Below are positions 1 through 39,858 of a DNA stretch of 64,000 bases, one piece after another. The translations under genes and the position numbers were made by a program. Position 1 is the stretch's first letter; every line of letters begins with the position of its first letter. Source of the DNA: Curvularia clavata (taxonomy: Eukaryota); assembly GCA_023920165.1 (NCBI GenBank), contig CP089276.1:434001-498000 (forward strand), read 5' to 3'. A model generated the notes under the pieces. That model saw nothing but the letters and a program-made list of their open reading frames with translations. It did not search any database and was not told where the DNA came from.

Positions 1-1367
1 GGTTGCCTGCGCGTGGACCTATGGACCGAGCGTTGTTATCTCGCTTGCCCTGGAGAGAGGGGTGTGCTCCAGCGAGCTGGAAGGGCGCTCTGGAACGGTT
101 TGCGCAAGCCATTGACAGCGGGAACGGAACAAGACAAATGAGCAGAGGCCTCTGCGACGGACATAAAGTGGTCTCGCTCTTGCCGAAGGGCCAAATTGGG
201 CGGCGTGGAGTGAGCAAGAGTCCAGATCGGTCTGGTAGCGACGGATTAGGAGAAGCAAAGCCTGAGGCGCTCAGCACGAAGCGAGGACACGATGCGCTTG
301 TGGGCGCAAGCCTGGAAGCGTTCGCAGCATGTATTGATCTGCCGGATGAGCAAAGCAAAGAAGAAAAAATTTATGTTGAGGACACCGCACGAGGCGTTGC
401 GGAGGCGACAGTTGTGAGGGTGGTGTGTCGTGCATGGAGGGAGAGTAGAGGGGTAAAGATCGCCGGCAGCGGAAAGGCATTGAGGATGCCAATGGCGAAA
501 GATAACGCCTTCAGTGTCGCAATAGGTGACGAGGCATGGCAAGGCGGAGCCAAGGGCCAGGATGCACAAGGGTCCATGGCAGTGTACAAATGCGGGCAGG
601 GGAGGAGGGTGCATAGATGGATTCAGATGGGCGGCTTACGCGAGCAGCAGCAAAGAGGAAAGGTGAGTATATTTGGGCGTCGTGTTTGTGAGCAAGGCGG
701 GCAGCAGACGGGGAGCGGCGATAATCGACAGAGCAGCCCCCATGACTGCTGCTGGGCTTCGCTTGGTGAGAGGGGACGTTTGGCCTCAGTCATCTGCGCA
801 CCGGGGGGTAGAGCCGGGCAGATGACTAGTAGTAGCCAAGTCACGCAGTTGGATCGGAGGCGGAGGTGTCAGCAGGTAAAGGGTTTGGGAGCGGCCATGA
901 CGAGTACGAGCAGGCCCGCGGCCGAAGACGAGAGACGAATGGCGTGCTGGGTGGGTGAGGGGGTGCAGGCGTATGCAGAGGCTACAGCGCTTGCGACAAA
1001 AATTCAGACGTCGATGCTTGGCTGCATGGTCAGGCCGTGCGGAGAGGACCCTGGCCGCCTGCTGAGGTGACTGGGGGGAGTGCTAGCGCGGTGAAAGCGT
1101 GGGTGTGGGTGTAGTCGAGTGGGTATGGCTCAGGGTGGTGTGCTGCCAGTGTGCCTGAGCGCGACTTAAGTATATGCCCCATCTTCCTCCCGCCGCCTGC
1201 TCCACTCCCACGCACGCACGCACGCTCCTCCGCACCTCTCTCTATCCGCTGACTCCCACCTGAGGCATTTTGTTATAACCTGCTGCCTGCCCCTCTCTTT
1301 CTCAGACTACATATCCACCACACCCCTCGTCGACTCGGCCTCACCACCCACATCCACATCCTCCACA

Positions 1368-1844
1368 ATGGCTTCCCAGATGGAGTGCTTCAACGACTTC
1401 TGTCTCTCCTGCGACCGCCAGATTGCCGAGAACGGCGTCTACTGCTCACAGTCGTGCCGCCTCGCCGACCTCGAGAGGGCCGGCAGCATTGCACAAGCAC
1501 CCTCGCAGCTCTCGTCATCGGCCTCATCATCGTCGTCTTCCAACAGCGGCTTCTACCTCGCTCCAGCAATCAACTTCTCCGCCTACAAGGCCTCGTCAAG
1601 CTCACCACAAGCTCCCTCGAGCCCCTACCACTACTACCCCACGGCAAACGGCAACTACTTTGCTCCCCCCTCAGCGACCACCCAACAACGCAGCCTGACG
1701 CCCTCATCATCACGCTCATCACTGGCCTCGTCATCGTCTCGCACCCAGTCGGGCATCTCGCAGCAAGCCGCCTCTCAGCTCAACAGCTACGTCCGGTCCT
1801 TTGACCAGACCCGCGACGTCAAGAGGAGGTACACTCAGTACTAA
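1368..1844 (+). CDS. Ecl1-family (extender of chronological lifespan-like) small Cys-motif protein
   Basis: 158-aa ORF with good start context (cacaATGG). N-terminal FCLSCDRQ..YCSQSCRLAD Cys motif is typical of Ecl1/2/3, followed by a Ser-rich tail. Confidence 0.8.
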   Translation: MASQMECFNDFCLSCDRQIAENGVYCSQSCRLADLERAGSIAQAPSQLSSSASSSSSSNSGFYLAPAINFSAYKASSSSPQAPSSPYHYYPTANGNYFAPPSATTQQRSLTPSSSRSSLASSSSRTQSGISQQAASQLNSYVRSFDQTRDVKRRYTQY

Positions 1845-9520: not shown

Positions 9521-11098
9521 ATGTTTGCAGCCCCGCGCTTGCGTTTCCTTGCCGTGAACAGCCGTCGTCAACCCCGCATAGGCATGTCGTCACCTCGTTC
9601 GCGGGCTGCGTCCCGCCTCATCCAAGTCTCCAACCATTTAGATGCGAAGAAGCCCTTCCTCGAATTGAACACTCCCTTTTCCACCGAACGCAGCGCACGC
9701 ATCGAAGACGAACAGGGCAACCGCATATTGCCCAAGAAGACAGAACCACCAAAGCCCCAAGTCAAGCCTGTCCAGCCAGCCGAGGCAGTCAAGCAGGAAG
9801 CCAAAGACATCAAGGAGACCGCAGAACCACCACGGAAAATGTCTAACCAACCGCCACACCCTGCGTTGCTCATTCCTGGGCCCATTGAGTTTGACGATGC
9901 CGTCCTCAACTCCATGAGCCACTACAGGTAAACTCCGGTTACGTCTTAACAAGACCCCTTGACTAAGTACATGCAGCGAATCGCACGTCGGCCAGCCCTT
10001 TGTGAACACCTTCAGCGAGGTCTTGGGAAACATCCGCAAGCTCTTCGTGTCCAGCGATCCTGCCGCGCAGCCCTTTGTCATCTCCGGCTCTGGTACTTTG
10101 GGATGGGATCAGGTCGCCGCCAATCTGGTGGAGCCAGGCGATGAAGTGCTTGTTCTGCACACCGGTTACTTTGCCGACTCGTTTGCCGACTGCTTCGAGA
10201 CATATGGCGTCAAGGCAACACAGCTCAAGGCCCCCATTGGCGAGCGACCACAACTCGACGAAGTTGAGGCGGCATTGAAGGAGAAGGAGTACAAGATCTT
10301 GACCGTCACCCACGTAGACACCTCTACCGGTGTGCTGAGCGAGATCAAGGCTCTGAGTGAGCTCGTTCACCGAGTGAGCCCTGAGACACTGGTCGTTGTA
10401 GACGGTGTCTGCAGTGTTGGCTCTGAAGAAATCCGCTTCGACGAATGGAAGCTTGACGCCGTCCTCACAGCTTCGCAAAAGGGTATTGGCTGCCCAGCGG
10501 GTTTGAGCATTATGATGGTGTCTGGTCGTGCCATCGAGAGGTTCAAGGCAAGGAAGACACGGCCAACTTCGTACTTTGGCTCATGGAAGAACTGGCTACC
10601 AAGTAAGCAGCCATTATTCACTCTAATCACTGCTAGCACCCACCTAACGCGATTCTAGTCATGCAAAACTACGAGGCAAAGAAGCCATCCTACTTTGCAA
10701 CTCCCTCCCCACAACTCATCCATGCCCTTGACACTTCCCTCAAGCAAATCCTCTCGCGACCAATTGAGGACTACTGGGCTGCGCACAAGGCTGCGTCGCA
10801 AAAGGTCAAGAAGGCCGTCGCGGATCTGGGCCTCAAACAACTGGCCTCAAAGCCCGAGAACCAGGCTAACGGTATGACTGCCATCTACCTTCCCGATGAC
10901 ATGACTCCTCCCCAGGTCCTGCCCAACCTGCTCAAGAAGGGTGTCATCTTTGCCGGTGGTCTGCACAAGGAGATCGCTACTAAGTACATTCGGTTTGGCC
11001 ACATGGGTGTTAGTGTGACAGACCCGAACCGCCCAGATATCACCAAGGCCATTGAGAGCTTGAAGGAGGGTCTGGTTGAGGCCGGATACAAGGCCTAA
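9521..11098 (+). CDS. AGX1: Alanine-glyoxylate aminotransferase (class V PLP enzyme); exons ~9521(or 9839)-9927, 9977-10602, 10659-11098
   Basis: Motifs LLIPGPIEF, SGSGTLGWD, THVDTSTGV, VVDGVCS, TASQK (PLP lysine) and IRFGHMG. GT-AG introns 9928-9976 and 10603-10658 join the three ORF pieces in frame. Confidence 0.93.
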
Positions 11099-11713
11099 TT
11101 CTGTGTTTAGATTGATGCTATACGAAAAATATACAGGAAAGATAAATACAAGAATAGATCAGTAGAGGCTCGTCCATGTTGTTGTTACAAGGAGAACGTT
11201 TTTTTTTGTATCTTGAGTTTTGTGACTATGTTTGGAATTGAGCTCTCGTTTCGACTATTCCCACCAACAGCAATCAACATCTTATCTACCTAACTCGCTC
11301 TAGGATCTTTACTGCTTCCGGATACCAGAAACCGAGCCTATTAGGCGTGTCCAAGACCAGTTTGCCAAGTGTCGCCCAGGAACAACAAGAGCCTACGAAG
11401 CGGACACAGGGCCCGCTCAAATTGCCACGGAAAAGTGAAATCATCGATACTGGTTATAAACTTCCAAGACGCGGTAAGTGGGTCCAACGAGGCTGTGTCA
11501 GTATGCTGGGTGATGGATTGGGGAAAAGATGGCCGTCAGTTCGCCTTTTTACGAGCAAAGTAATGGGTTCAGTTTGCTTGCATCTATCTACAGGAACCTT
11601 GGATCAAGAAAGCAATCACCCTCTTGTACTCTCTTTCATCAATACTCTCCCTTACCTTTATCCCTTCACGCTCGCTTTTGTCTTTCCGAACTCTCTCAAA
11701 TGCACCCATAACC

Positions 11714-12772
11714 ATGACCACCCCCTCACGAACCCACCACCAAACCTGGTCCCCAACCTGGGCCACTGCGCCCCCTTCCTCTTGCTCCACGTTGCGTAAC
11801 CTCAACGGCGCCATATCCTGGGGCGAGCGCTGTGTCTTCGCCCAAGAAGACGGTGACCCCTTGCCTTTCAGCATAGACACCGCTTGCATGCCTTGGATCA
11901 CATCGACTGCTTACCCCCCTGCATCCGCCTTTTACTCACCCGCTACCGCCTGTCCTGATGCGTGGACAGCGGTTGCTACGCAAAGCGGCGTGGCGAGCAG
12001 AGAAGGGTGGCTAGAGGGGGAAACAGGGTTGCAGTGTTGTCCGGCGGGGTTTGAAGCGGATGGCAAAACGAGATGTAGACTTGGTGGGCAGGGGAAGTGG
12101 CCGGTTGTGGAGTGTGGAGAAGCCGATGCGGAGGAGAATGAGTTAAGGACATACGATGCGGCGGCGGGGAGTAAGGGTGCAAAACCGACGGCTGCGGCAC
12201 TGATGTTGAGGTATAGAGGTGGAGATGTTGGGCCTGAGGCGAGTGGGACGGGGAGTGGGAGAGAAGGAGGTGATGGTGGTGGGATATCAACGGGTGCGGT
12301 GGCAGCTGTTGCTACTGTTATCCCACTTGCATTTGTTGTCGCTGCGATTGTAGCGTGGATTATCTGGCGTCGAAGACGAAGTAGAACAAGTGGTCATCTC
12401 GCACTGTTGACTAAGAGCAGCGAGAAGGGAGAAAGTGCATCTAGTTCCATGGATACAGTAGGGCATACTGGGTCCAAAGGCACTGCCGCGAAGTATACTA
12501 TGGGCTCTTTTTCGTCTCAGTTTCCCCACGAGACTCCAGAGTGGAATGCGGAAATGGATGCTACGGATACTGAGCGGAAGCAACTCGTCACTTCTCGTGG
12601 AGCTAGAGCAGCAGTGGGAAACGAAGCAACAGGAGAAGCGGCAGAGTTGGGAGGTGTGATGAGGGTGCCGAGAAAGCAAATCGCACCCGTTGAGATCGAC
12701 GGTGTGCAGATTGTTCCGGAGATTGGGGACGCGTATATTCCATATCGTCCTGGGGTTGAAGCGGGTGGATAG
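11714..12772 (+). CDS. Single-pass membrane protein with Cys-containing ectodomain (Mid2/Wsc-like architecture)
   Basis: ATG at 11714. CMP..YSPA.ACP..W and CCP.GF motifs, Gly-rich linker, TM segment AVAAVATVIPLAFVVAAIVAWIIW followed by RRRR, and cytoplasmic AEM/AEL/VEID motifs. Confidence 0.75.
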   Translation: MTTPSRTHHQTWSPTWATAPPSSCSTLRNLNGAISWGERCVFAQEDGDPLPFSIDTACMPWITSTAYPPASAFYSPATACPDAWTAVATQSGVASREGWLEGETGLQCCPAGFEADGKTRCRLGGQGKWPVVECGEADAEENELRTYDAAAGSKGAKPTAAALMLRYRGGDVGPEASGTGSGREGGDGGGISTGAVAAVATVIPLAFVVAAIVAWIIWRRRRSRTSGHLALLTKSSEKGESASSSMDTVGHTGSKGTAAKYTMGSFSSQFPHETPEWNAEMDATDTERKQLVTSRGARAAVGNEATGEAAELGGVMRVPRKQIAPVEIDGVQIVPEIGDAYIPYRPGVEAGG

Positions 12773-13631
12773 GTAGTTAGGCAGGTGTGTAAGGAGAGGA
12801 AGCATTGCATCGTATAAACTTCATGTCCTAGTGAAAGCCCCTGTAGAGTATGCGGAGGAACGAGGCTCTAAAATTATAGTACTGAAGCACTGCCTGGTCT
12901 CCCTAGTTCATTTGGAGAGAGGAAGTACGATAGCGGACGTATTATTACACCGTTATCGTACTAATGGCCTGAGAGACGACAGGCACCACAGTGGTCCCAT
13001 TTTCTGATCCAATCCGCGTCACGGAGTGTGTAGACGTTATTATGTAAGCTAGAGACTCATATGTGAAGACTGATCGGATAAAACTTTTGCAAATAATTTA
13101 GTGATTGCTTGCTCTCTGACATTTGATCCTTCTGACTTCGATGAGACTTTTGTTCACGCTGGAAGACTTCAGGGTCGTGTTGCTGAGTGATTCTCGTATC
13201 TAGATATCATGCCATTTTCTAGATATCTTTGTTATTTTGATGAGATCAAAGTCGAATTTGCGACAGTCAACTTGTTTGCTGTAGGGTTGGCTGCGATAAC
13301 CAAATGATCATATTCATAGCGTTAACATCTATCAGTACGTCTTGAAACTACAGATATGGTACTCTGCATACAAACCGGTTTAATTGTCGTAGTTAAGAAA
13401 AGGGTGACAAACCATTTCGGGGCGGAGATACCAGGTCTAAGGAAATTCACAGCGAATCCCCTCAGGGCACTATCAAGACGGAGCTAATAGACGGAGCAGT
13501 ATGAAAAATGTTATTTCAACAACTTTGGGTTTCAACGCCTGCAGAGCGAATCACCTCAAGTATGTATGCGAACGGCTTAAAAGCCGCTATAACAAAAAAA
13601 CATTGGCCTCCGACTACAAAGATACCCTCTC

Positions 13632-14120
13632 TTATGTTGTCATGAACCACCAATGCCTCCGTTTTCTTCTCGTCAAATCGTATTCCTCTGCATCTGTCCG
13701 TCCGAGGATTGCATCGTAGCACGGCCTCTTAGTCGATGTGACCCAGAACCGTGTGGTTTGTATTCGCTTATTATTATTTGCAAAACACCAAGTAAGATCC
13801 ACGTATCCTTCTATTCTATCTCCCCGATAATATGTAGGTGCACTCGGCTCCGTCTTCTCGTCGATGGCATGCACTATTACTTGGAGCACTTGCGTGACCA
13901 GATCAAGCGAGATGACATTGAAGCCTATTCCCGGATCGTTGGTGAGAATGGCATGGTGCCAGTTATCTGATCTGTCCTTTTGCGGCGCCTTTATTTCAAT
14001 CTGAGTCGGCTGGTATAGTCGTAGTTTTTTCTGCATTGCGTCAACAATAGCTGATGAAGAGAGGAAATAACTCACCGTGAATAGCCAAGAAATAAACAGT
14101 CCGCAGTTGATTGAAGGCAT
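13632..14120 (-). CDS. Small retropepsin-like (clan AA) aspartic-protease-fold protein with atypical DPG motif; probable 45-nt intron 14031-14075
   Basis: ILTNDPGIGFNVIS lies at the D-T/S-G position, then G.V.L.W, RFWV and YDAILGR (retropepsin C-terminal hydrophobic-LG motif). In-frame GTGAG...TTGAC...CAG intron. Confidence 0.6.
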   Translation of the reverse strand: MPSINCGLFISWLFTVSYFLSSSAIVDAMQKKLRLYQPTQIEIKAPQKDRSDNWHHAILTNDPGIGFNVISLDLVTQVLQVIVHAIDEKTEPSAPTYYRGDRIEGYVDLTWCFANNNKRIQTTRFWVTSTKRPCYDAILGRTDAEEYDLTRRKRRHWWFMTT

Positions 14121-15190
14121 ATTTCGAAATACACGTACTCTTGCAACAAAAGTATGACACTCGCTGCCGTGGTTATATCAGATGCTCTTAGTTTGACATC
14201 TGATGCGTGAGCTGAAAGACTATGCGAAGGTTGTTTTTTGAAGGACTTTTCTGATATACATAGGTCATAGGCTGAGCCAATAGTGTCTGAGGAACCAAAC
14301 GTCCTTCATCGGGTCTCATGCGGCTTGTGATCGGTGCACCACTTGCCACTCCTAAGGTTATTCGGCAGTGCCACATTCAATAGTAGGACATGGGGCATCC
14401 CAGAACTTTGGCGTATGGCTGAAAAGAAGGCAGCCAGGCTGAGCGTCGCACAGTGGCTTACGGTAACCGGTCAGGGCAGGGCTAAATCGTGCTAGCGTAG
14501 GCTACAGGAAACAGTTTTCAAGGAAAATTTGTTGCCTATAATAAGGCAGTGCACGCTGGGAAATGTCGAAGTCCCGTCCTGAAGGACGCGTTACTTGGCC
14601 ATTGTTGTACGGAGATGCGGGTGCGCTGCAGGACCATTAGCGCCGGAACACGCGTGTCGCCGCTGATGGATGACAATCACCCAATGACACCTTCATTTAC
14701 ACGTGAGTGCACATTATGGCGCAGCCACTTCCAAAGGCGTCTTACCGGTTTCCAAGATATCTGTTTCGTGGCCCAGATTCGCAATTGATACCTTCACGTG
14801 TTCCTACATTGCCGTCATAGCAAGGTACAAATGTCGTTCAGGAGGAAACCCTATTGAAGTCATTCTCATTATGTTTAGAAAGCCATGTCTTTAAGCCATG
14901 GTTGTAATAGCAGCCGCCCTTGCGATGAATGGGGCTGAGCAACAGGAATGACGTGTTTCAGAAAGGCTGGAAGGACTCTCAGCCTGGCGCTTAAGGCAGC
15001 CACCTGGCGCTTCAGTCCCGAGAGGCCTCCCAGCATCTTCATGCAGTTGGGAGTCACTATGCAGAATACACCGGACTATGAAGAAGGACTGTTTGGCAGT
15101 GTTATATGCTTTGCCCAGGATACATGGCTATAATGGAAAGTCTAGTCCGCTACCACAAAATCAACGATACCTCCGGATAACGACAAGAAC

Positions 15191-16188
15191 ATGTCTGTGC
15201 CGCACGATCCACTTCGCGAGCATGTTGTAGGATATCCGAAGCTAGCTGCGCAGATAGGGATACTCCCCGAGCTTGCTATATTCCGCCGGTTCGGTGCTCT
15301 CAATGCCCAAAATCTCCTGTACATGCAGGCTGAACTGGCGTACCTAGAAACGAAGCTGAAGGAACAACAACAGGTTGATAGTACCAATCCGTCCGGGAAA
15401 AGATCAGTATACGCGCTGAACTGGTATTGGCTGAAAGCATCGGAGGGTACCGGCGCAGACGAGCAGCAAACACTGATTCTAAGGATTAGGGAGGTGCTTA
15501 AAGAGTACAGTCCGTAGAAGTCCAAGGCAAGAATAGTCATAAACTTGTACTGACGATGGCAGATGATGCGCTCATTCAACAAGCCGAAATCCTCAAGTAT
15601 CCTAAGCCCGGCAACTGGGATCTTCACCATATGCAGAATTACCTCCATTCAGAAGCAATGGGAGAAGACTCATTGCTTGGTTATGACTCGAATACATGGG
15701 GCTCCGTGTTCGATCGCAAGTCTCAGAAGCCAGACTTGGTCACTCTCTGCCCCCGTGAGAAGAAGGACGCCTTCTCCACTTGGGCAGCTGAGAATGCCAT
15801 CGGCGGTCTTTTCAAATGTGGCTGTGCTCGATTCATGAAGCCATCAAAAACTCATGGGGTCGTTGGCTATCGAGATAGCACGGTATACCATATCACATTC
15901 TGGATTACCAGTATCGTCGCCTCTCTTATCCCAATAGCGTCCATTGTGGTCCTGTACGTAGTCAAGTCCATGACTGCTCGACTTGGAATCATTGCTGCCT
16001 TCAACGTCCTGGTGTCGGTTTGCTTGGTGGGTTTTACAACCGCAAAACGCGCCGATATTTTTGCCATCACAGCCGCGTAAGTACCTTAGAGAGTACCACT
16101 CTTGATACTCGAAATTTTGACACAAAATTCTAGGTTTGCAGCTGTACAAGTCGTTTTTGTAGGTTCAGATCAAGTCACAAGAAGCTGA
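15191..16188 (+). CDS. DUF6594-like fungal membrane protein; exons 15191-15509, 15563-16076, 16134-16188 (a further 5' exon is possible)
   Basis: Family motifs GYPKLAA, IFRRFGALNAQNLLYMQAEL..LE, LKEY/NDAL, DLVTL, three C-terminal hydrophobic segments and terminal TAAFAAVQVVFVG. GT-AG introns restore the frame. Confidence 0.85.
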
Positions 16189-16738
16189 CTCTGATGGTGG
16201 TGTAAACTTCAGCGGGTGATCGTTCAGACAACTCAAATTTTATAATAGTAGATTCACAAGTACATTAAATTCATAACTTAAATACCCGTGCTAGGGAAGC
16301 CACAGTAAGACTTAATCAGTTATGCTAACTCCATGCTTGAGATAATACACATTGCGAAAACAGAGAAAAAAAATCCAAACGCCACCGGTAAGTTGGCCTT
16401 CGAGGGCGCTGTTGAATGCAGCACATGCCGTGTCCAGAAAGGCTAGTTCATGCACGCAAGCGTCAGCCCCGAGGTGGGGGAGTCGTCTTGGATCACTCAG
16501 CTAGCAACTTAAATTGCCCTCGCCCCCACCAAAGATGCAGCACGAAAATGAGTCTACTATGAAAGCCAACCTGGTACCTACCCCCTCTCCCATGTGTCAT
16601 TTCTGTGGCCGCCCTGATCGTAAATGCTGGTTTTTGTTTACGGCGATTGCTGAAAGATGGTTTCAACCAGTGGTCTAGTATCCATGAAGTCGGTAATTCG
16701 TTAACCTTTTTGTCGAAAACAGTGGACACTGGGTATCG

Positions 16739-17665
16739 CTAGCGTGAATGGGAGTTGGAAGCCTTAGCCTTGCGTGCCTAGACAGGTCAGTATCATCGTC
16801 CTGGTTCAGTTGACACAGCTACATACCTCTTCCTCAGCCTTCCTCATTTCCTCTTGTTCTTTCTGCCTTTTCTGTTCAAGCTCTTGCTGCTTCTCGATGG
16901 TGATACTAGCTGCTACATACGTGTTAGTAACTGGGCTACTATAGCTAAAGGGCACAACATACGCTCGACGGGTGGGCGACGTCCACGGAAATTTGCGAAG
17001 AATCTTGGATTTAGTTGCACCAGCCGCAGTTCGTTGATGGTAATGCTGCCGATGATCAGGTCGAAATTGTTCGAGTCGACAACCTTGAACGTGCAGATTT
17101 CGTAGCGTGGCCGGAAGGTGTCATCTTTGTCGTGTTTCAACGGGTACCATCTTCCCTGAACCTCACCCAAAAACTGGATTTTATCATCACCCAGCTGGAC
17201 AATACTGGTGGCACTGATAGAGGGTTGCCACTCGACCCCATTATCTTCGAGGAATTGGCGAGTGACCAAGTTGTACGTGCTCCCGGTATCAAACAAGACT
17301 ACCCCATGGATGTAATGGGGAGGCCAACATGAGTTCTCCCCATCCCGAAAATGGATTTCGACTCTCCGCACGAATGCTTCATGCTCTTGGGATGGAACAA
17401 CGGTTTGAGTGGACCGAGTATCAAACGATACTGTCCCATGTATGTAATCAGGAGACGAGAACGAATTCTCTACATTCCGAATGGATATGTCGACTGTCCT
17501 GTCAACGTTTCCATTTTCCTGGGGTGGAATGGAGGTTTGAGTGGACTGGGGCGGGGTCGAGGCGGCGTGGTGAGTTGAGACAGAGGACGGCAGGCGAGAT
17601 CTGATGAAGGTCCTGAGCCTTACGTAGGAGGCACGTATGTGCCCACGCAGCTTTGGTTTCTTCAT
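16739..17665 (-). CDS. Retropepsin-like aspartic protease with C-terminal coiled-coil tail; exons 17665-16963, 16912-16827, 16777-16739
   Basis: VLFDTGSTYNLV (catalytic DTG at ~17290), LGEVQGRW and FKVV..FDLIIG. Two GTATGT...(CTAAC/CTGAC)...TAG introns give the tail EKQQELEQKRQKEQEEMRKAEEEARKAKASNSHSR*. Confidence 0.8.
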
Positions 17666-19386
17666 CCCCCCTTACTGTCTTTAGTGGGGTGTGAACACGA
17701 GATGAGGAGTAGCTTAGTTGGTTCTAGCTGTCTCTGGCTGCTTGTAAGCTTGAGCTCAGCTGCTTGTGAGACACGTTTTTCTATCGAGCACTCACTGAGA
17801 GTTAGAAGGAGGTCCCTTGTACTTATTGGGTGTACTGTCAAATGTAGCTGTGACTGTTACTTGGATGACAACGAAACCAACACCAGGGAGAGGGGGCTAA
17901 AATCACGACGGCCACAGCTTCCGGAAACAGTGATCTATGTAACAAGACGGAAGTAGGCAGTGTTGTTAGTTTTGAAGCTCGAAGAGTCGCCTGCGTCCTG
18001 TGGCGCAAGGACGGTGGGACTTCTACACCAGGCTGACTACGAGCAGATTGCTAGGTCCTCAGGCTATCTTTTGCCTTCCGGATCACTCGCTCATTTGCTG
18101 CAACCTCTACTGCGCCTCAACAAATGGTGTGGAAGCGCCCATTCGGGAAGTCAACCTCTCGCCGGACGTGCGGGCTACACGAGGAAAAGATTCTGTGTGC
18201 GAATGGGATCCACGCTTCCCATAATCCAGCTGAGTTCGAGCACGCACATCCCTGTCTCGAAATCATTTGCCTGATGGTCCTCCTCTCCAGCCACAGCACC
18301 AGAACCTCAAAAGGCAGAGAGGTCGCACAAAGACCGCACGTTTGCACGCGCAAAAAGCCACATGATCTCATTTTTAGTGTTTGTGACGGCTAAGTCGTGA
18401 ATTGTCCTCCTCGGGCGCAAGGTTCGAATTGTCTCGTAGTTGGTCACATTACCTAACCCAAACCTTGGGCACCATTAACCGACAGTGGTGACCAGCACAA
18501 ACGATCTCAACACATACACTCTCGAAGGACCTGAGGCGCAGTGCAGAAAGGTAACAAAAGAATATGTACGCGTCCATTACGTCCCTACAGGACCTGTGTC
18601 ATTGAACGGATGCCTCAGTAACAATATTGCGATCACGTTTTGGACCCCAAATCACTGCTCTGCTACCACGTCCTCCACGCTCTTTTGCCACATCATCGTA
18701 AACGTGTTGTATTTAAACCTGCCAACAAGCACCTAGACAACGGTTTTTTCGTCACCAAACTCGCGCTCTTCTAGCGACCCCCTAGCATTTTATAGCATAT
18801 ATCATAGCAATGTAAACTTCATATATTTTTAGTTTCAATACAGATCATATCCCACAACATAACTACCTTCAAACCTTTCTTTCTCATGCATGACTATCTT
18901 CGTTGTGAGTAACTGGACATATAGGTAAACGTTCATGTTACTAAAGACTAAGTTACATTTGGAATCTAAGGCAGGTGTACAGTATTGAAACGCCGCTGTT
19001 TGCTAGATTACACTTAGTTGTATTGTGTTATCCATGAATACGTTCGCAAGTAGTCAAGTATACTAGACCCCAAATGCCATTCAGAACTTCATCACTAGGC
19101 CACCAGACGACTTGACTCGTTCCAAGACCAGAAGGAAGCATGGCAAGTGATTGAAGATATTTCTGCAAAAACCCATGTAGCTCGCATCTGATGCGTAATG
19201 TGTCCCGAACCCGGGTTTCATGACCAAAGCCAAGATGGAAAGGGGAATGGGAACTGAAGGTGAAAAGTGGAGTGGCTATACCAAACAACACTTCCTCACT
19301 GTGCGTATGAGTCTTCACATGATCCCCTGGCTTTGGATTCACAGACTTCATTCAAACTAACTAAACGTATCTTGGCCCAGCTCCCC

Positions 19387-20223
19387 TCAAGCATCCACCT
19401 TGGCTGCAGAATCCGCGACCTCATCCGCCGTCTGAGCAGCCTCCTTGTCCTCCTTTTGTTCCTTCTTTTCCACCTGTTCCTTACTCGGCACAGCGTCCTT
19501 GTTGTCTACAAGCTTCTTCACCACCTGGACGGTAGCAGCGGGACCGCCGGGTTCAGCAGCCAGCACCTTACCGGCCTTGTCGACAACAAAGACGCCGCGG
19601 GTGGTGCCCTTGGGCGCCTTCTTGAAGCCGATGGCTGAAATGAGAGTCTGTGTCGGGTCGCAGAGCAGTGCATACGGGAGCTTCTGCTTGGTCTTGAAGG
19701 TGGTGTTGGCTTTGGGGCTGTCGGACGAGAGACCGTAGATCGAGTACCCGGTAGCCGTCAGGGCCGTGTACGAGTCGCGGAAAAGACAGACTTGTGTTGT
19801 ACCTGTGCGAAGATGTGTGTGAGCTACCGCTATATACGCGATGTGTGGAGGGGTATGACGCGACTTACATCCGGGGGTTGAGGCTTTAGGGTAGGTGAAG
19901 AGTACCACGCCGCCCTTGCTTTCTTCTACGAGCTTCGCAAGGGTCGTCTTGTCTCCGTCGTTGGTTTCGATCTCCCCGCCAAACGAGGCGAGGTCAATTG
20001 TGTCACCGACCTTGGGCGCGCCGCCAGACGCAGCAGAGGCGCCATTGCTCTTGCCAACAACGGCTTTCTTCACAGCTTCCACTTTCTCAGTGACCACATC
20101 CTGTACCTTTTCGACGACAGTTGGCTCGGTTTCAGCCTTTTTGCCCTTGGTAGGCGCCTTTTTCTTTGCTGGCGGTGCTGGCGCTGGGGGCGCCTCTTTG
20201 CGCTTCCGAAGCTCGACTGGCAT
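19387..20223 (-). CDS. DOT5: Peroxiredoxin Q/BCP family (Dot5-like); 66-nt in-frame intron 19803-19868
   Basis: FTYPKASTPGC|TTQVCLFRD (peroxidatic and resolving Cys after splicing), YGLSSD, LLCDP, RGVFVVDK. Basic N-terminus resembles a nuclear localisation signal. Confidence 0.9.
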   Translation of the reverse strand: MPVELRKRKEAPPAPAPPAKKKAPTKGKKAETEPTVVEKVQDVVTEKVEAVKKAVVGKSNGASAASGGAPKVGDTIDLASFGGEIETNDGDKTTLAKLVEESKGGVVLFTYPKASTPGCKSRHTPPHIAYIAVAHTHLRTGTTQVCLFRDSYTALTATGYSIYGLSSDSPKANTTFKTKQKLPYALLCDPTQTLISAIGFKKAPKGTTRGVFVVDKAGKVLAAEPGGPAATVQVVKKLVDNKDAVPSKEQVEKKEQKEDKEAAQTADEVADSAAKVDA

Positions 20224-20940
20224 GTTGAGACAAGGACAACGAGTTGAGTCGCGGTCGCGGTCGCGTTAGTGTCGCGGGAGTATCAAGGCTAACTAAGAGT
20301 AAGAGCAAAGAGTTGGGCAGCCGGAAGCTCGGGGCTGAGTGATTGAGGTCGTGGGGAGTTTAGGTAGGACAGTTGGTGGACCGTCTATGTACGAGCCAGC
20401 AAGCTGTGGTACCACTGTCGCAGGAGAAGCAATGGCACAGCTAGCAGTACCGTGTCGTCGACGAGAGATGCTGAGTGCGATGAGCGCGAATCAGCAGAGC
20501 AAGGAGGTGTGTCTCATAGTGATCTGACCTCCGAGGGCCAGGTCGTCCAGCCTCCTCACTTGGCGCTGCCGTCCATATTAACATTAGCCAGATTACATGA
20601 GCCTGCGTCTGGTCTCCGAAAACAGCTTATCTGGGACGGGCACTGGGGTAGGGAGACGCTTGTTATTGGCTGGGTGACGTGAGGAGTCGTGAGGAGCGTG
20701 CCGATGCGCTGCACCGCAGGAAGCATGTCCCCGGTCGCGCCAAAACGCCGCTCCCGAAATCCACCAATTCATTCAAGTCTCGACTCCAACACTGCATACT
20801 GCGCGTGTCTGTTGAGCGTATGCGCTTTGTGCGATTATGTACTGTTCAGGATATTCACATCGTAGTAACCAGCCCTGGGTGGAACCCGTCATTGGGGAAG
20901 AGCTCCCTCCCAACGCATAGGTAATCCCAACGTACATGGT

Positions 20941-22819
20941 TCAGCCGTCATCCATGCCTCCCGCTGCCCAGCTGACGGGATGCCAATTGTCCTCGCAAGA
21001 AAACACCTTGCCGCCTGAACCATCATGCAGGGCCCGGCCGGACGACCACATGCCCAAGCCAAACTGTAGCACAAAGTTAACCCACGCGTCCACCTCGAAC
21101 GAGGAGAGCAAAAGAGACTTACAATAGCCATTCCCAGCACGACAATAGAGCAGTTGATGATTGTAAAGATTGCCAGCCGCTTCGACGAGAACAGTCTTCC
21201 ATTTGCTTTGTTGTGCCACAGCCAGAGCAACGGAGGAAAGGCATCTGCTCATGTTAGTGAACTGGCCGAATTTCGTTGCTCGGAACAAAAAAGCTTTGCA
21301 GCAACTTACAGCTGAACCAACTCCCAAAGAGCGCGCCGATCAAGCCCAACAGCAAGTTGAAGCTTGGAATTGCCTCCGCCAAAATCCAACTTGCTAGCCA
21401 TGCCCCCGAGCAAATCCCCCACCAGCTGCCCAAGCTTTTCCAGCTCTTGGTGTGTACCTCGTCTGTGCCCTTCCACATCCGGAGGTAGATGTACTTGGTA
21501 GCTACTGATCCATTGACCACTCCAGCAATTATAATCGTTGGCAGTGCTATGCCAAAGCAAATCTTGCTGACTAGAGGCGATGCGGAACCGATAGCGGGCG
21601 ACGAAACGAGCGGTCCGGCGTAGTAGTATATGACGGCTGAGATGAGCAGGTAGAAGGTTACTGCGATGCCTTGTTCAAAGAAGAGAGCTTTTCGGAAGTC
21701 GCGCGGATCCTTGAGTTCAGATGCAAAGGAGAAAAACGCGACATGCCCGGCTACAGTGCGTCAAGGGTGATGCTCTTCTCAAGCAAGAGGCATGTACTCA
21801 CTGTAGGCGAGCACAATGTTCATGACAGGTCCAAGGCCTTTGTCCAGCGGTACATTGGGTCGTATAGCCACCATGTGGTTCATGTCTGGCTTCTGGATGC
21901 CAATTGCACCCATGGTAATTGTCACCCCTATGATAACGGAGAGACAAGCTATGGGTTGGTAAGCCGAACCGCCCGTACTTCTGTGCGCGCCTTGACTTAC
22001 AGAAGATGCTAAAGTAGCTGATATTCTTAAATGTCCTTGGGAGCCCCAATAAGAAGGAGATAACCAGCCCAGCAACACTAAAGATGATTGTACAGGTACT
22101 ATGGTTAGTCATTGCGTTCATGGCCACGGCAAATGTTAGGATGTGCGCGCCCATGATGAAGATCAACACCAACACTTGTCCCACGGCAATTGCTTCGTAG
22201 GCGACGCGTCCACTCATAAGCTGCCCGCAGTCAGCATATGATTGCACCGATGGATGTACAAGTTTGAATTCGCCAATCAGGTATCCGGTGTATGTGGCGA
22301 TGATCCCTAGTAGGCATATGCAGAGCATGCCTGGAATGATCCCGAGGATTGCTAGAGCTTGAGGGAGCGCCAGAACACCAAGAGAAACGTTTTCGGCTAG
22401 CATTACTTGGTATTGTCAGAGTAGGACAGTGCAGTTAGAGAGGCAGATCTCACAGATGCCTACGTTCCTATGGTCTCGGGTCAGCAAGGACTCATGAAAG
22501 GATGGCAAATGTATTAGGTTGCGTCGAGTAGCTTTGGTTCGACGCCGTACTTGAACGCTTTGCTGGATTAGAGAAGACGTTTCAACACTTACCACCATTT
22601 GCACGTCTTGTACTGTACTTCGGCGCCCTCTTCATTACCGAATACATCGTCCTCCACAGCTGGTCTGATTTGTGTTTCAACATCGGACGCTGCGGACAAG
22701 GGTTGCGGCAAGGATTCTTGTTTGATTGCAGTGGCCTGTTTGGCAGTCTGAACTGCGGCGTGGTTGAGGCTTGTGTACGGACGACTGTTACTCGAATTCA
22801 CTGCGCTGAGTTTAGCCAT
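20941..22819 (-). CDS. Neutral amino-acid permease (AAAP/Aa_trans family, Neurospora Mtr-like), multi-exon
   Basis: YKTCKWW-NVGI-LMLAENVSLGVLALP, YTGYLIGEFK, LPRT, VNGSVATKYIY and AEAIPSFNLLLGLIGALF. Several GT-AG introns, including a 14-nt micro-exon. Confidence 0.9.
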
Positions 22820-23785
22820 TGTCGACGGAGAAGCAATGGCGCCTACGAATGGATGGTAAATAGAAAGAGAATCGATTTTCGTGCCAAAGAGACCTTTGTA
22901 TGTAGAGAGAGGTGTCCCAATAAGTCGAGAATGGTACCTCCATACCAACTGATAGGTCAAAGATACGGGAACCGTAATAGTCGGCTCCAAAACAGGTGCA
23001 TACATTCATGTGCCTTTGAGGGGGTGCCATATTTCCAATAGGACATGACGTTTCCCTTCGGTATTGGAAGGGGCTGACCAAACATATCTTGCGGGATTTC
23101 AAGCACAGCCTTTTGCGGCCAAGGTTGTGGGTAGTGTACCATGGAACTTGGGGATATGAACACAGCAGCCAAAAAGATGTTACAGTGACACAAAACTCCA
23201 TATAATGTGTATGATAAGGGTTCCAGACGGTGTGATACTCACAGGTGCAATTGTCTTCACAAAATATCAGATGTCAACACCTGCTGCTAACCATGGTTGA
23301 AGTCATGCCGCGCAGCATGGACATCATTCATACAATCTCATAATCCGATAAGAAATGTGAGGTGATGTGGCTATTGGTTCTGCTCAACATGCGTGCATAT
23401 GCACTAAAGGACGATGGCTTCTGCTCGCATTGCGCACTTGATGATGAGTGTAAGATTGTTGATTTGGAGCACGTCCAGTTGCATCGAATCGACAACCCGT
23501 CATTCTAGGCGATTTCCTTCTGAAGCGTATGGAGCATGATTTTGTAGTGTCGTGTATGTATAGCGGAAGAATACCTACTTACCGCAGAACCACCGACGTC
23601 ATCACGTGGGTTGGCGAAACTCGCGCGACGTCAGGTCATCGTTGTCGATTCCGCCACTTCCCCAATACACTTTCCACGAACGTAACTCCACCCGCAAAGC
23701 CGTAATTCATTGCCAACGTGGAACTCCCATGTTAGCAGCCTTCACAGTCGTCTTGGAGATATATTAACGCCTCCTGAACAGCGAA

Positions 23786-24751
23786 ATGTCGTATCCAACT
23801 CGCTCTCGATCAGGAGTAACGCGCAAACGCAATTTTGCGACCTACGCCGACGATGCGCCCGTCCATTACCAGTCGTCCCCCACAGCACCTTCGAGTAGCA
23901 AAATAGAAGTGATTGATCTCACACAAGATTCGCCCAAGAAAGTGCACGTTCAGAAGAAATCCAAGTGTCATGGCGATGCGCCGGTCCCAGAGAAGCGAGC
24001 CAAGATGTTTCGCAAGAAGGCGCCACAAAGCTACCTGACTGTGAAAGAAAGAGCTCTCATACAGCGCCTGACAGTACTTTCGCGCGAGCGCTGTGGCAGC
24101 GACGATGTACCCGAGGAGAAAGTTACAATTGCAGGCTCGACAGGCAACGTCTATACCGTTTCAATTGGCCTCATTCCCTCATGTGACTGTCCACACGCGA
24201 AGAAGGGCAATCAATGCAAGCATGTTGTATATGTCATGCTCCGAGTTTTGAAGGCACCAGAGAATATCGCCTACCAGCTAGCTCTTGTCAGCTCTGAGCT
24301 GCGTGAGCTCATCAAGAATGCGCCGCCAATCCCAGGAATTGAGACGAATGGAATGAATGGCACTGAGCAAGACGGTAACCGAAAACCTATTGAAGGCGAA
24401 TGTCCCATCTGCTATGACGAACTTGATAAAAAAGAAGATATTGTCTACTGCAAGAGTAGTTGTGGAAACAATATACACAAGGTTTGCATGCAGAATTGGA
24501 TGGCCGCAGCGCGGGGCAAGGCAACGTGTCCGTATTGTCGGGCCAAATGGGAGGCAGAGGCGGGTTTGGAGGGCAAGCTTGGCAGCATAGACACCAAAGG
24601 GCTACAGAGGAACGAAGATGGTTACGTCAATGTCGCTGCTCAGTTAGGGTTGTCTGGTCAGAGAGATTACTCTACGTACCACCCATTCTGGGTACGATCG
24701 CACCTGGGTTACAGTGGAAGAAGAGGCTATGACTCCTACTACGATGATTAA
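23786..24751 (+). CDS. SWIM zinc finger + RING finger protein (putative E3 ligase)
   Basis: GSTGNVYTV..PSCDCP..CKHVVYV (SWIM) and CPICY..YCKSSCGNNIHKVC..W..CPYCR (RING). Confidence 0.9.
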   Translation: MSYPTRSRSGVTRKRNFATYADDAPVHYQSSPTAPSSSKIEVIDLTQDSPKKVHVQKKSKCHGDAPVPEKRAKMFRKKAPQSYLTVKERALIQRLTVLSRERCGSDDVPEEKVTIAGSTGNVYTVSIGLIPSCDCPHAKKGNQCKHVVYVMLRVLKAPENIAYQLALVSSELRELIKNAPPIPGIETNGMNGTEQDGNRKPIEGECPICYDELDKKEDIVYCKSSCGNNIHKVCMQNWMAAARGKATCPYCRAKWEAEAGLEGKLGSIDTKGLQRNEDGYVNVAAQLGLSGQRDYSTYHPFWVRSHLGYSGRRGYDSYYDD

Positions 24752-39000: not shown

Positions 39001-39573
39001 TGATTCAGCCATACACAGCTTTAACAGCGGACGGCAAACGAGTTGCTGCCATTGATCTCTAAGTGACAAGTTGACGATATCGCTGCGCTCTGTAACAGCG
39101 TTACATATGTGCTTCCGCAATGCTGGGACGCTGTGCGCAAGCTGCACCGCGAGACTCGTCACAAATCTAGCTGCGTGACCAACATCGCCGCCACCTCGGG
39201 AAAAGAAGAAGCTGGCTGCAAGGCGCTGTTTGTCATAGTAGCTGCGTGCGACTGTCCGCGCGATAGTTGACTTGCCCGTCCCTGCCAGCCCGCTCAACCA
39301 GAAGATGCGCCGCTCGTCTTGCCCATCTACCCATTTGTATATCTCGCGGAGGAGGTCGACACGAGTACCGAGGAGGCAGCCTTGCTCATGCTGCTTGCTG
39401 TACGCATTGAAGGGCGCGTCTTGGGCGTAGGGTAAGTGATGGAGGGGGTCATCAACCCTCACGTGATAGCTGTCGCCCAGATGGGCTTTGGCGCCATCGT
39501 TGATATTGACATTGCCGTAACGGTGGCCCAGCGAACGTTCGCTCCCGATATTCAGTTCACCGGGATAGGCCAT
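36064..39573 (-). CDS. NACHT-WD40 NLR (NWD2/HET-E-like) with N-terminal HET-s-related amyloid motif; exons 39573-37903 and 37848-36064
   Basis: CLLGTRVDLL, Walker A GLAGTGKST, ASFFFSR, Walker B IVIDALDEC, LTSRPE, HHPSLRDFL, YACRYW and FLHWLE. Intron 37849-37902 joins to RDAHRF..APLQIY.SALVFSP, followed by about 10 WD40 repeats (AFSPDG.LVASAS.D.TVRLWE). Confidence 0.95.
36350..37630 (-). repeat. Tandem WD40 repeat array (~126-nt units)
   Basis: Near-identical DNA units, e.g. gtctcccatagtctcac(t/c)gtgccgtcgtcgg at ~37145 and ~37277. Later units are more degenerate. Confidence 0.85.
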
Positions 39574-39858
39574 GGAACAAGCAGCATTGAAAAGAAGATA
39601 GGGATGTGGAAGAGATAGAGGGAGGTTTACAGCCGTCCTTGCGATTGGTGCCGCTCAGCCTCGCCCCCATTCGCTTAACCCTGCAAGCAAGCGGAGGCTC
39701 AGCGTGTCGGAAGCTGTTGTCGTTGACCGGTAGGGGCTGAGACATGGGCGTGGCATAGCCTTACTCGTGCTCATATCTGCGTCTGAGTAGCACATATTAA
39801 TTATCTCTGAGCCTCCCCATCCATATCCTCGTGTGTCACTTCGCTTTTTACATGCTAC

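Follow-up and report, generated by a model that had tools for sequence, protein, structure and literature searches.

A DUF6594 gene and two cellular retropepsin-like genes kept together in Curvularia clavata and related fungi

Among described systems, the closest likeness to two of the proteins treated here is found in Ddi1/DDI2, whose RVP domain has a retropepsin fold that is cellular rather than borne by a retroelement. NRF1, on which DDI2 acts, is tethered to a membrane. According to PMC7369636, DDI2 cleaves this transcription factor. Small single-domain retropepsin folds outside retroelements are also represented by Rickettsia APRc and Pseudomonas RloA, bacterial enzymes that are secreted or embedded in membranes and whose motifs are canonical. 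The retropepsin-like fold (peptidase clan AA, family A2-like) is an acid-protease fold with a single lobe, roughly 100-130 residues in size. All retropepsins known to us dimerise, and a side chain at the Gly position of their active-site motif is expected to disturb the active site. In fungi, we know of no description of stand-alone cellular retropepsin-fold proteins besides Ddi1. A precedent of another kind is the fungal gasdermin het-Q1, which is genomically paired with the protease het-Q2; the proteases of gasdermin clusters are serine and caspase-like.

The window analyzed here is a 64,000-nucleotide stretch of Curvularia clavata DNA, in which three consecutive genes occupy 13632-17665 on strands -, +, and - (Table 1). 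An earlier note had described them as a DUF6594-like gene between two retropepsin-like genes, and ORFs, NCBI proteins, and RNA joints confirm the three genes at these positions. The short-type gene, A (13632-14120, minus strand), encodes 147 aa and has a single 45-nt intron. Its retropepsin-like domain lies entirely in exon 2 (about 13656-14015), while exon 1 encodes a short hydrophobic N-terminus whose Cys-Gly is kept in 3 of the 4 relatives that have an N-terminus; A-type proteins are about 125-150 aa long. The longer-type gene, B (minus strand, ATG at 17665), encodes 275 aa with an intact DTGS, the codon of D126 lying at 17288-17290 within LFDTGS, and its first exon is 100% identical to NCBI yc1106_03870. 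Both of its 3' introns are annotated and neither was seen among the RNA contigs of 4 runs; the donor and branch signals of the first have counterparts when relatives are translated through the intron. RNA contigs over gene B include spliced plus-strand RNA, antisense to its 3' end, with no long plus-strand ORF. The K/E-rich tail of B is kept in relatives and is predicted to be helical at residues 240-271. A degenerate duplicate inside B copies the active-site strand (residues 102-130) and is an insert relative to homologues.

The middle gene is a clear member of DUF6594, a large fungal family of which a literature search by DUF6594, PF20237, and IPR046529 found no mention. Its spliced product is NCBI yc1106_03869 (295 aa), and the ORFs at 15146-15517 and 15502-16080 match PF20237 at E 3.7e-19 (70 bits) and E 1.6e-28 (100.7 bits), where the gathering cut-off is 30 bits; the two exon ORFs cover profile positions 1-85 and 86-232 of 238. 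The three C-terminal transmembrane segments claimed for it earlier agree with three hydrophobic segments in the Kyte-Doolittle profile, at residues of about 216-239, 246-267, and 272-288. Close pairs give dN/dS values of 0.16-0.33 (A), 0.25-0.56 (B), and 0.05-0.18 (DUF6594 exon 2). Because the introns of A and DUF6594 have RNA joints and dN/dS is low in all three, A, DUF6594, and B are real, spliced genes under purifying selection, with the introns of B taken from the annotated model.

Table 1. Features of the three-gene locus, in window coordinates
Feature	Position	Strand	Basis
Gene A exon 2, including stop codon	13632..14030	-	ORF, RNA joint, model, family alignments
Gene A intron, 45 nt, GTGAGT..CAG (CT..AC on +)	14031..14075	-	spliced out in RNA contigs of 3 of 4 runs
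Gene A exon 1, 15 codons	14076..14120	-	sequence, family alignment
Divergent intergenic region common to A and DUF6594	14121..15190	.	single putative RNA contig covers the whole
DUF6594 exon 1, N-terminal helical part, PF20237 positions 1-85	15191..15509	+	Pfam, RNA, NCBI protein
DUF6594 intron 1, 53 nt, GT..AG	15510..15562	+	RNA joint, one run
DUF6594 exon 2, two C-terminal hydrophobic segments and part of the third	15563..16076	+	Pfam, RNA, hydropathy
DUF6594 intron 2, 57 nt, GT..AG	16077..16133	+	RNA joint, two runs
DUF6594 exon 3, stop codon 16186-16188	16134..16188	+	sequence; agrees with 295-aa protein
Gene B exon 3, stop codon 16739-16741	16739..16777	-	annotated model
Gene B intron 2, GTATGT..ACTGAC..TAG	16778..16826	-	annotated; canonical signals
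Plus-strand transcript intron, antisense to gene B 3' end	16786..16944	+	GT..AG joint, two RNA runs
Gene B exon 2, K/E-rich tail, predicted helical	16827..16912	-	annotated model
Gene B intron 1, GTATGT..TACTAAC..TAG	16913..16962	-	annotated; canonical signals
Gene B exon 1: basic N-terminus, S/T/P-rich linker, retropepsin-like domain (about 17003-17371)	16963..17665	-	sequence, NCBI, family alignments
Degenerate partial tandem duplicate inside gene B, residues 58-86, reads DTRS	17408..17494	-	58/87 nt identical

Judged by its AlphaFold model, a moderately confident one with a pLDDT of 64 as a whole and 62-86 in the core, gene A has a retropepsin fold, as had been proposed for both flanking genes. 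Foldseek against the PDB placed the Ddi1 RVP first (7d66_J, E 3.6e-4, probability 1.00, TMt 0.57), followed by retroviral proteases, and in a VIA-align comparison with 48,161 chains the top 14 were all retropepsin-like (Z 7.2-10.1), the best being 7d66_B (Z 10.1, rmsd 3.1 over 98 residues). The Ddi1/DDI2 RVP is the best structural match of the model (7d66, 5yq8, 3s8i, 4rgh), and bacterial retropepsin-like entries are also among the matches (5c9b, Z 8.6; 9g59, Z 7.2), the likeness of APRc and RloA to A being a structural one. For the other two proteins, the DUF6594 orthogroup profile matched no solved structure (best E 1.7), with no gasdermin likeness detected, and the model of B has a pLDDT of 39.7, so that the fold of B is inferred from homology to A and from weak profile links. 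An hhalign comparison of the B and A families (probability 98.6%, E 1.4e-15, 113 columns) indicates that the two are homologous and distantly paralogous.

A Pfam scan of A and B found no family at E<=1 and narrow A/B profiles found no match among PDB sequences; with the B superfamily profile, Ddi1 chains made up 6 of 12 PDB matches, including the best (E 0.0021). Among 92 family members, Asp_protease_2 (PF13650) was matched weakly by 24 at E<=0.1 (best 2.1e-5), gag-asp_proteas (PF13975) by 11, and RVP_2 (PF08284) by 4. These families, of retrotransposon and bacterial-type retropepsins, have the same domain size and the same motif order, D-T/S-G ... W ... hydrophobic-hydrophobic-Gly, although all but a few of the matches fall below curated cut-offs and the A and B of the window match none; as a lead only, these families are also indicated by language-model features of B residues 95-232 (scores 0.91-0.93). 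D126 and G206, the latter in the hydrophobic-hydrophobic-Gly motif (LIIGS in B, AILGR in A), are invariant in the 92 sequences. An identification of A or B as a Ddi1/DDI2 orthologue was rejected: both lack the UBL, HDD, and UBA domains by Pfam and do not match PF09668, which just 1 of the 92 members matches (E 0.015). Unlike Ddi1/DDI2, the A/B family varies in its motif (DTG, DTQ, DPQ), B carries a basic N-terminus and a K/E-rich tail of its own, and both have DUF6594 as a fixed neighbour.

The weak Pfam links to the retrotransposon-type RVP_2 and gag-asp_proteas, together with the internal partial duplication in B, are what could be cited for reading A and B as retroelement debris, or for regarding the three as unrelated orphan ORFs in chance juxtaposition. 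Between 12800 and 19400 there are no direct or inverted repeats of at least 20 bp, as LTRs would give, and no further long ORF that could encode RT, integrase, or gag, which rules out a remnant of an LTR retrotransposon or retrovirus; the neighbouring ORFs are unrelated cellular genes by Pfam scan. The genes contain spliceosomal introns, either confirmed or conserved, they evolve under purifying selection, and their chromosomal position beside DUF6594 is stable. The debris or chance reading is already refuted and keeps practically no probability, and the earlier description of A and B as cellular, intron-bearing genes holds.

An enrichment of retropepsin-like neighbours around DUF6594, which the earlier note had made the first check of its proposal, is strongly positive. 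In a sample of 60 non-redundant metagenomic DUF6594 loci, a retropepsin-like ORF lies near DUF6594 in 25. One is found downstream in 15 of the 28 loci whose downstream flank measures 1.5 kb or more, in convergent orientation in 19/19 downstream matches, and upstream in 14 of the 32 whose upstream flank measures 2 kb or more. Where both flanks could be assessed, 9 of 21 loci have the full A-DUF6594-B trio; another 8 have no retropepsin-like neighbour, and the tie is therefore one of a subfamily, not of DUF6594 as a whole. Within 4 kb of DUF6594 there are 36 retropepsin-like ORFs in 257 kb, compared with 0 in 118 kb farther out, so the adjacency is far beyond chance, and this positive result justifies the term module. 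Consecutive GenBank numbers list B, DUF6594, and A in E. turcicum (EOA85755/56/57) and B. oryzae (EUC43051/52/53), and the B. zeicola trio has EUC33621/23/24; by such accession order the trio is present in Exserohilum and three Bipolaris species, and Alternaria has a B-DUF6594 pair (A. novae-zelandiae J4E88_000915/916).

Part of this conservation is ordinary synteny, with the outer flanking genes of the window also present at six loci (L001, L002, L003, L005, L010, and L012). These plain orthologous blocks would fit a linkage that is regulatory or neutral, the products never touching, with A and DUF6594 sharing a bidirectional promoter or DUF6594 and B having overlapping convergent transcripts; the putative RNA contig that spans the entire divergent intergenic region and the spliced plus-strand RNA over the 3' end of B could be read in the same way. 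Against it, the order and orientation of the trio are kept at loci whose other flanking genes differ, and in nine non-syntenic locus pairs the trio genes alone are in common, so that the trio stays linked where the genomic surroundings are unrelated. It has also been duplicated as a unit: a single contig of 45.3 kb carries two trios (L026 and L032), whose DUF6594 genes group as sisters in the tree. Order and orientation persist in trios with DUF6594 identities as low as about 50% and in pairs with identities as low as about 30%, and both neighbours come from the same rare domain family, of which a narrow profile found just 115 representatives (E<=1e-3) in 1.84 billion proteins. We consider a merely regulatory or neutral linkage unlikely. 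The best explanation, which we favour tentatively, is that Pleosporales and related fungi have a conserved three-gene module whose products act together, and that the locus is a copy of this module; that the three proteins work together at all is probable.

What the retropepsin-fold partners of such a module do depends on their active sites. D-T/S-G is present in 0 of 12 A-type sequences (window and loci), in which motif positions two and three are not conserved and the Asp is kept in 11. The DPG of gene A, residues 62-64 of the unspliced reading, had been taken as a possible mark of a regulatory or pseudo-protease partner. By the alignments, DPG itself is a coincidence of this species (one of five close protein homologues has DSG), while the degenerate motif makes A a predicted pseudo-protease type and would fit a non-catalytic partner. 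The 24 B-type neighbours read DTG (8), DTQ (10), DPQ (3), DFH (2), or DAG (1), with the Asp in all 24, and among 113 aligned family members D-T/S-G is kept in 61, Q stands at the Gly position in 42, and the Asp is present in every one. With DTG in only 8 of 24 B-type neighbours and D-T/S-G in 61 of 113 members, protease activity cannot be assumed for the whole family, and since many members have a residue other than Gly at the Gly position, proteolysis may not be its common function.

These counts leave room for a genuine module of non-catalytic retropepsin folds, in which peptide-binding or scaffold pseudo-proteases would regulate, chaperone, or tether the DUF6594 protein and the B of the window would have kept DTG from an ancestor while not acting as a protease. 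The unconserved A-type motif, the DTQ, DPQ, or DFH of 15 of the 24 B-type neighbours, and the frequent Q at the Gly position speak for it, and the invariant Asp, Trp, and hydrophobic-hydrophobic-Gly motif would fit a structural or binding role. The near-universal retention of the Asp in B-type, A-type, and family sequences is, however, the pattern of a catalytic residue, more than half of the members keep D-T/S-G, and every characterized retropepsin-fold relative from the structure searches is an enzyme. We regard the non-catalytic reading as possible though doubtful.

An effector of allorecognition or programmed cell death, a membrane protein activated by its neighbouring protease as in het-Q1/het-Q2, was the function suggested in the earlier note, and nothing in the data points there. 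A likeness exists, in that a protease-type gene adjoins the gene of a membrane-related protein in a filamentous ascomycete of the Pezizomycotina; between loci, A and B evolve faster than DUF6594 (B is 25-33% identical, DUF6594 47-70%), and an NLR-like NACHT-WD40 gene lies 18 kb from the trio, not adjacent to it. The trio nevertheless has two protease-fold genes rather than one, of a protease class unlike that of the gasdermin clusters, and DUF6594 has no detected sequence link to any solved pore-former. It is strongly conserved under purifying selection, with 58-76% identity across Pleosporales. Nor was idiomorphic polymorphism among strains seen in the small sample of runs available: DNA runs labelled as four organisms contain 0.77-1.00 of the region's words, and the runs aligned to it differ by 2-4 letters in 4.7 kb. 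An allorecognition or cell-death role is very unlikely.

Within the favoured reading of a module whose products act together, the parts suggest a three-component system. A DUF6594 protein of this subfamily has a soluble helical N-terminal part and three C-terminal predicted membrane segments; type A lies upstream in divergent orientation with its degenerate motif, and type B lies downstream in convergent orientation and combines a basic N-terminus, a domain whose Asp is invariant, and a helical tail rich in K/E. Most likely the retropepsin-fold proteins would dimerise, as B2 or as an A-B pseudo-heterodimer, and at the membrane the dimer would bind the DUF6594 protein by its cytosolic part. Where D-T-G is kept, as in the B of the window, the dimer could cleave that part and so release or inactivate the N-terminal domain, by analogy with retropepsin-like DDI2 acting on membrane-tethered NRF1. 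The specific proposal that an A-B heterodimer controls the DUF6594 membrane protein through its cytosolic domain, by regulated cleavage or clamping, is rather improbable as stated. The distribution attached to it would be wide in Dothideomycetes and possibly beyond, with the Asp of B invariant and often in an unusual D-T-Q setting.

To our knowledge, trios of fixed order and orientation across unrelated contexts are rare in fungi outside metabolic clusters. This one offers a testable handle: the genes are three and small, D126 is the single candidate for a catalytic Asp, and there is a single membrane partner. The frequent replacement of Gly by Gln beside an invariant Asp bears on how the retropepsin fold is reused, in enzymes or in pseudo-enzymes. 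If the three-component system is true, it would provide the first functional context for the large DUF6594 family, and A and B would constitute a clan-AA family that is new, cellular, and non-canonical in its active site.

The three genes that the earlier note had set in an island of two retropepsin genes around a DUF6594-like one are real and lie where it put them in this fungal window. The DUF6594 gene corresponds to yc1106_03869 at NCBI, and its product has three C-terminal hydrophobic segments by hydropathy. The main exon of gene B, the second retropepsin-fold gene, is 100% identical to the NCBI hypothetical protein yc1106_03870 [Curvularia clavata]. The best NCBI protein match to gene A, the first, reaches 80% (JGI source), with none at 100%, and the deposited record apparently lacks an annotation for the gene, though it is spliced in RNA. 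In the gene B protein a basic N-terminus, with 9 K/R and zero D/E among the first 30 residues, is followed by a linker, by a domain carrying LFD126TGS, in which the intact DTG reported earlier can be read, and by a K/E-rich tail.

Genes, introns and repeats of the window around the A-DUF6594-B trio (X6, X15 and X16 are sequencing runs)
Feature	Position	Strand	Remarks
Ecl1-family ORF	1170-1844		
Aminotransferase class V fragment	9963-10658		
Ser/Thr-rich single-pass protein gene (left neighbour of trio)	11564-12772	+	
Gene A	13632-14120	-	147 aa once 45-nt intron removed
Gene A intron	14031-14075	-	CT..AC on +; spliced out in X15, X6, X16
DUF6594 gene	ATG 15191, stop 16186-16188	+	PF20237, E 3.7e-19 and 1.6e-28
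DUF6594 intron 1	15510-15562	+	spliced out in X6
DUF6594 intron 2	16077-16133	+	spliced out in X15 and X6
Gene B	ATG 17665	-	275 aa in annotated model
Gene B annotated intron	16913-16962	-	textbook signals GTATGT..TACTAAC..TAG
Gene B annotated intron	16778-16826	-	textbook signals GTATGT..ACTGAC..TAG
Gene B internal tandem partial duplication	17408-17494 vs 17276-17362	-	132-nt, diverged
Peroxiredoxin gene (right neighbour of trio)	19387-20265	-	AhpC-TSA (Pfam), E 2.5e-20
Amino-acid transporter (Aa_trans)	21254-22415		
SWIM + RING-finger protein	23768-24751		
NLR-like gene (two adjacent ORFs)	36064-39654	-	NACHT / NPHP3_N (E 2e-32), then WD40 repeats; 18 kb from trio, not adjacent

In the internal duplication of gene B, residues 58-86 (DTRS) repeat the initial strands and the active-site loop found at residues 102-130 (DTGS), with 58 of 87 nt identical; most homologues lack it. 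Exon 1 of gene A (14076-14120, -) and the N-termini of A-family proteins have in common a short run of hydrophobic residues in which Cys-Gly recurs (MxxxxCG[IL]), a candidate signal that may serve in lipidation or membrane anchoring.

The region 13300-18000 was compared with unstranded contigs from four runs known or presumed to be RNA. Splice junctions for the two annotated introns of gene B are missing from all four runs; contigs drop rare forms, so this is no counter-evidence. A different junction, 16786-16944 in X15 and X6, has canonical ends (GT..AG) on the + strand only, and the corresponding intron is antisense to the 3' end of gene B and spans its tail exon. The contigs carrying it extend from 16293 past 18000, and no long + strand ORF was found there. 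This RNA may represent a 3' UTR, long and spliced, that belongs to the convergent DUF6594 gene; alternatively, it may be an antisense lncRNA. The C-terminus of the protein relative P0005 reads as though a similar splice existed in another species. Since the contigs are unstranded, expression of gene B from the minus strand is putative. The K/E-rich tail is present in the annotated B relatives P0015, P0016 and P0017 and is encoded downstream of the domain in five metagenomic loci (L001, L012, L006, L003 and L054); to judge from these sequences it is a genuine part of B-type proteins. A single X6 contig (13494-16304) spans gene A, the DUF6594 gene and all of the 1.07-kb divergent region between them, and introns on both strands are spliced out of it, so the A and DUF6594 transcripts overlap or have very long 5' UTRs. 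A bacterial promoter and terminator scan of the intergenic region gave no excess, such signals being irrelevant for a eukaryote. That the three genes are linked for purely regulatory reasons is an unlikely reading.

Neither A nor B matched a Pfam model at E<=1. The narrow profile of gene B found no match in the PDB, and that of gene A found only designed helical proteins (E ~0.02), which were judged spurious. A structure model of gene B from a five-sequence alignment was unusable (pLDDT 39.7); that of gene A reached pLDDT 64 overall and 62-86 over residues 40-150. The gene A model led to retropepsins in two independent searches: Foldseek placed Ddi1 RVP domains at the top (7d66_J, E 3.6e-4, TMt 0.57) and retroviral proteases next, and the top 14 matches of VIA-align among 48,161 representative chains were all retropepsin-like, led by 7d66_B (Z 10.1, rmsd 3.1 over 98 residues). 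A profile of B orthologues gathered 115 representatives at E<=1e-3, of which 22 reached E<=1e-10 and 10 reached E<=1e-30. In the resulting superfamily alignment of 92 sequences of at most 300 aa (26 others, long proteins and some short fragments, being excluded), D126 of the active-site motif and G206 of the hydrophobic-hydrophobic-Gly motif are invariant and W173 nearly so. Scanned singly against Pfam, 24 of these 92 members touched Asp_protease_2 (best E 2.1e-5), 11 gag-asp_proteas, 4 RVP_2 and 1 the Ddi1 model, unrelated families being matched by at most two members each. Ddi1 chains made up 6 of the 12 PDB matches of the superfamily profile (best E 0.0021), and hhalign joined the B superfamily to an enlarged A family of 19 sequences with a probability of 98.6% (E 1.4e-15, 113 columns). 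A and B are thus homologous retropepsin-fold proteins without retroelement context and, as far as the gene A model, the profile links of B and the A-B alignment can tell, distant paralogues sharing that fold. The gene models of four long relatives of B (P0063, P0085, P0098 and P0121; 746-964 aa) include fusions to other regions. In one of them the fused part consists of ankyrin repeats (Pfam), and inspection by eye shows Cys-rich segments resembling zinc fingers in P0085 and P0098; such fusions could be real, or merged gene models.

The main result concerns the neighbourhood of DUF6594 genes in other genomes. Scanning metagenome contigs for DUF6594 gave 80 loci with 27-72% identity (a scan with a narrow alignment found no relative); these were translated in all six reading frames and searched with HMMs from alignments of A and of B, a retropepsin-like ORF being called at E<=1e-5. 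Merging loci whose main DUF6594 ORFs were at least 97% identical left 60 groups, and 25 of them have such an ORF nearby. It lies downstream in 15 of the 28 groups having at least 1.5 kb of downstream flank and upstream in 14 of the 32 having at least 2 kb of upstream flank. Whatever the flank length, all 19 downstream matches have the strand opposite to DUF6594, which is also the arrangement in the window; the 15 upstream matches comprise eleven of A type, divergent, and four B-like by HMM, three divergent and one on the same strand. Where both flanks reach at least 2 kb (21 groups), the full trio occurs in 9, the downstream gene alone in 2, the upstream gene alone in 2 and neither in 8. The enrichment of protease neighbours for which the earlier note had proposed a check is plain, with 36 retropepsin-like ORFs in the 257 kb within 4 kb of a DUF6594 gene vs 0 in 118 kb farther out.

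This order and orientation are conserved beyond ordinary synteny. The outer flanking genes of the window recur only at L001, L002, L003, L005, L010 and L012; among 12 other representative loci, no flanking ORF family apart from the trio genes is common to four or more, and in nine non-syntenic pairs compared one-to-one the trio genes are the sole matches. Two complete trios, L026 and L032, lie on one 45.3-kb metagenome contig; in the tree their DUF6594 genes pair as sisters (SH-aLRT 98), and the trio was thus duplicated as a unit. Trios, or parts of them, also appear in named genomes (table below). The alternative that the proteases are retroelement debris, or adjacent by chance, was rejected as highly improbable: the intron of gene A is removed in RNA, as expected of the spliced cellular genes proposed earlier, and 12800-19400 holds no direct or inverted repeat of at least 20 bp and no other long ORF.

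Trio genes in named genomes; side-by-side placement is read from consecutive GenBank accessions or locus tags, not coordinates
Genome	B	DUF6594	A
Exserohilum turcicum Et28A	EOA85755	EOA85756	EOA85757
E. turcicum, second assembly	ACJQWK_04127	ACJQWK_04126	ACJQWK_04129
Bipolaris oryzae	EUC43051	EUC43052	EUC43053
Bipolaris zeicola	EUC33621	EUC33623	EUC33624
Bipolaris victoriae	on same 401,846-bp contig	XP_014560784	XP_014560785
Alternaria novae-zelandiae	J4E88_000916	J4E88_000915	not found

On a DUF6594 tree of 49 rows (12 having been dropped for low coverage), the presence of a retropepsin neighbour requires 10 changes, vs a mean of 16.6 after shuffling, and 0 of 500 shuffles were as low. A 16-row group with the window (SH-aLRT 86) has the neighbour in 12 rows, 4 being unassessable and 0 assessed as without, and in a separate clade of 10 rows (SH-aLRT 95) no row has it. 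This clustering indicates that the tie to retropepsins belongs to a DUF6594 subfamily and not to the whole family. No clear segment discriminates DUF6594 sequences with such neighbours from those without; the DUF6594 profile found nothing in the PDB below E 1.7, and an ESM Atlas search that skipped its own family gave no usable match.

Purifying selection acts on all three genes, B evolving fastest. For unsaturated locus pairs, dN/dS values are 0.16-0.33 (A), 0.25-0.56 (B, computed from stop to stop over the entire ORF) and 0.05-0.18 (exon 2 of DUF6594). Between non-syntenic loci, identity is 25-33% for B and 47-70% for DUF6594, and DUF6594 orthologues share 57-76% across 19 aligned Pleosporales sequences. 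In DNA runs labelled as four organisms, 0.77-1.00 of the short strings sampled from 13300-18000 are present; X6 differs from the window by 4 letters and X15 by 2, and run X21 has next to none of the strings, which is no proof of absence. The presence/absence or idiomorphic polymorphism among strains that the earlier note had proposed to look for was not seen in this small sample of runs, and a role of the trio in allorecognition or cell death is improbable.

At the active-site motif, where 113 of 118 B-superfamily sequences could be aligned, Asp is present in all 113. The motif reads D-T/S-G in 61, DPG in 1 and otherwise in 9; in the remaining 42, Gln replaces Gly (DTQ, DPQ, DSQ, DIQ). Among B-type neighbours of DUF6594 genes it is DTG in 8, DAG in 1, DTQ in 10, DPQ in 3 and DFH in 2, three more being too short; both B copies of L026 and L032 read D-F-H instead of D-T-G. 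In 11 of the 12 A-type sequences the Asp is retained, with the second and third positions unconserved (DTA, DPN, DTT, DNS, DIA, DPE, DYT, DDS). Type A as a whole therefore looks non-catalytic by its motif, and the DPG that the earlier note had read in gene A, found solely in the window copy, is a coincidence of this species. Protease activity cannot be assumed for the B family either.

We infer that the products of the trio act together. Tentatively, the most likely reading is that a retropepsin-type dimer, either B2 or A-B, would form and engage the membrane-anchored DUF6594 protein at its cytosolic part, cleaving it where the DTG is intact, as in gene B of the window. NRF1 is a membrane-tethered protein. 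The nearest analogy to the proposed cleavage is that of NRF1 by DDI2, as described in excerpts of PMC7369636. A non-catalytic version of the same module, in which the retropepsins would serve as pseudo-proteases, is nearly as likely, because DTQ and DPQ form the majority among the B-type motifs; the motif of gene B in the window is canonical (DTGS).

The literature searched, with supplements and subscription journals outside its scope, holds no mention of DUF6594, PF20237 or IPR046529, and for stand-alone fungal retropepsins the same scope turned up, in the excerpts retrieved, work on Ddi1, bacterial and unrelated proteins alone. The A and B proteins are retropepsin-like, of a family without a Pfam model and with an often non-canonical motif, and their fixed association with a DUF6594 subfamily constitutes an undescribed candidate module.
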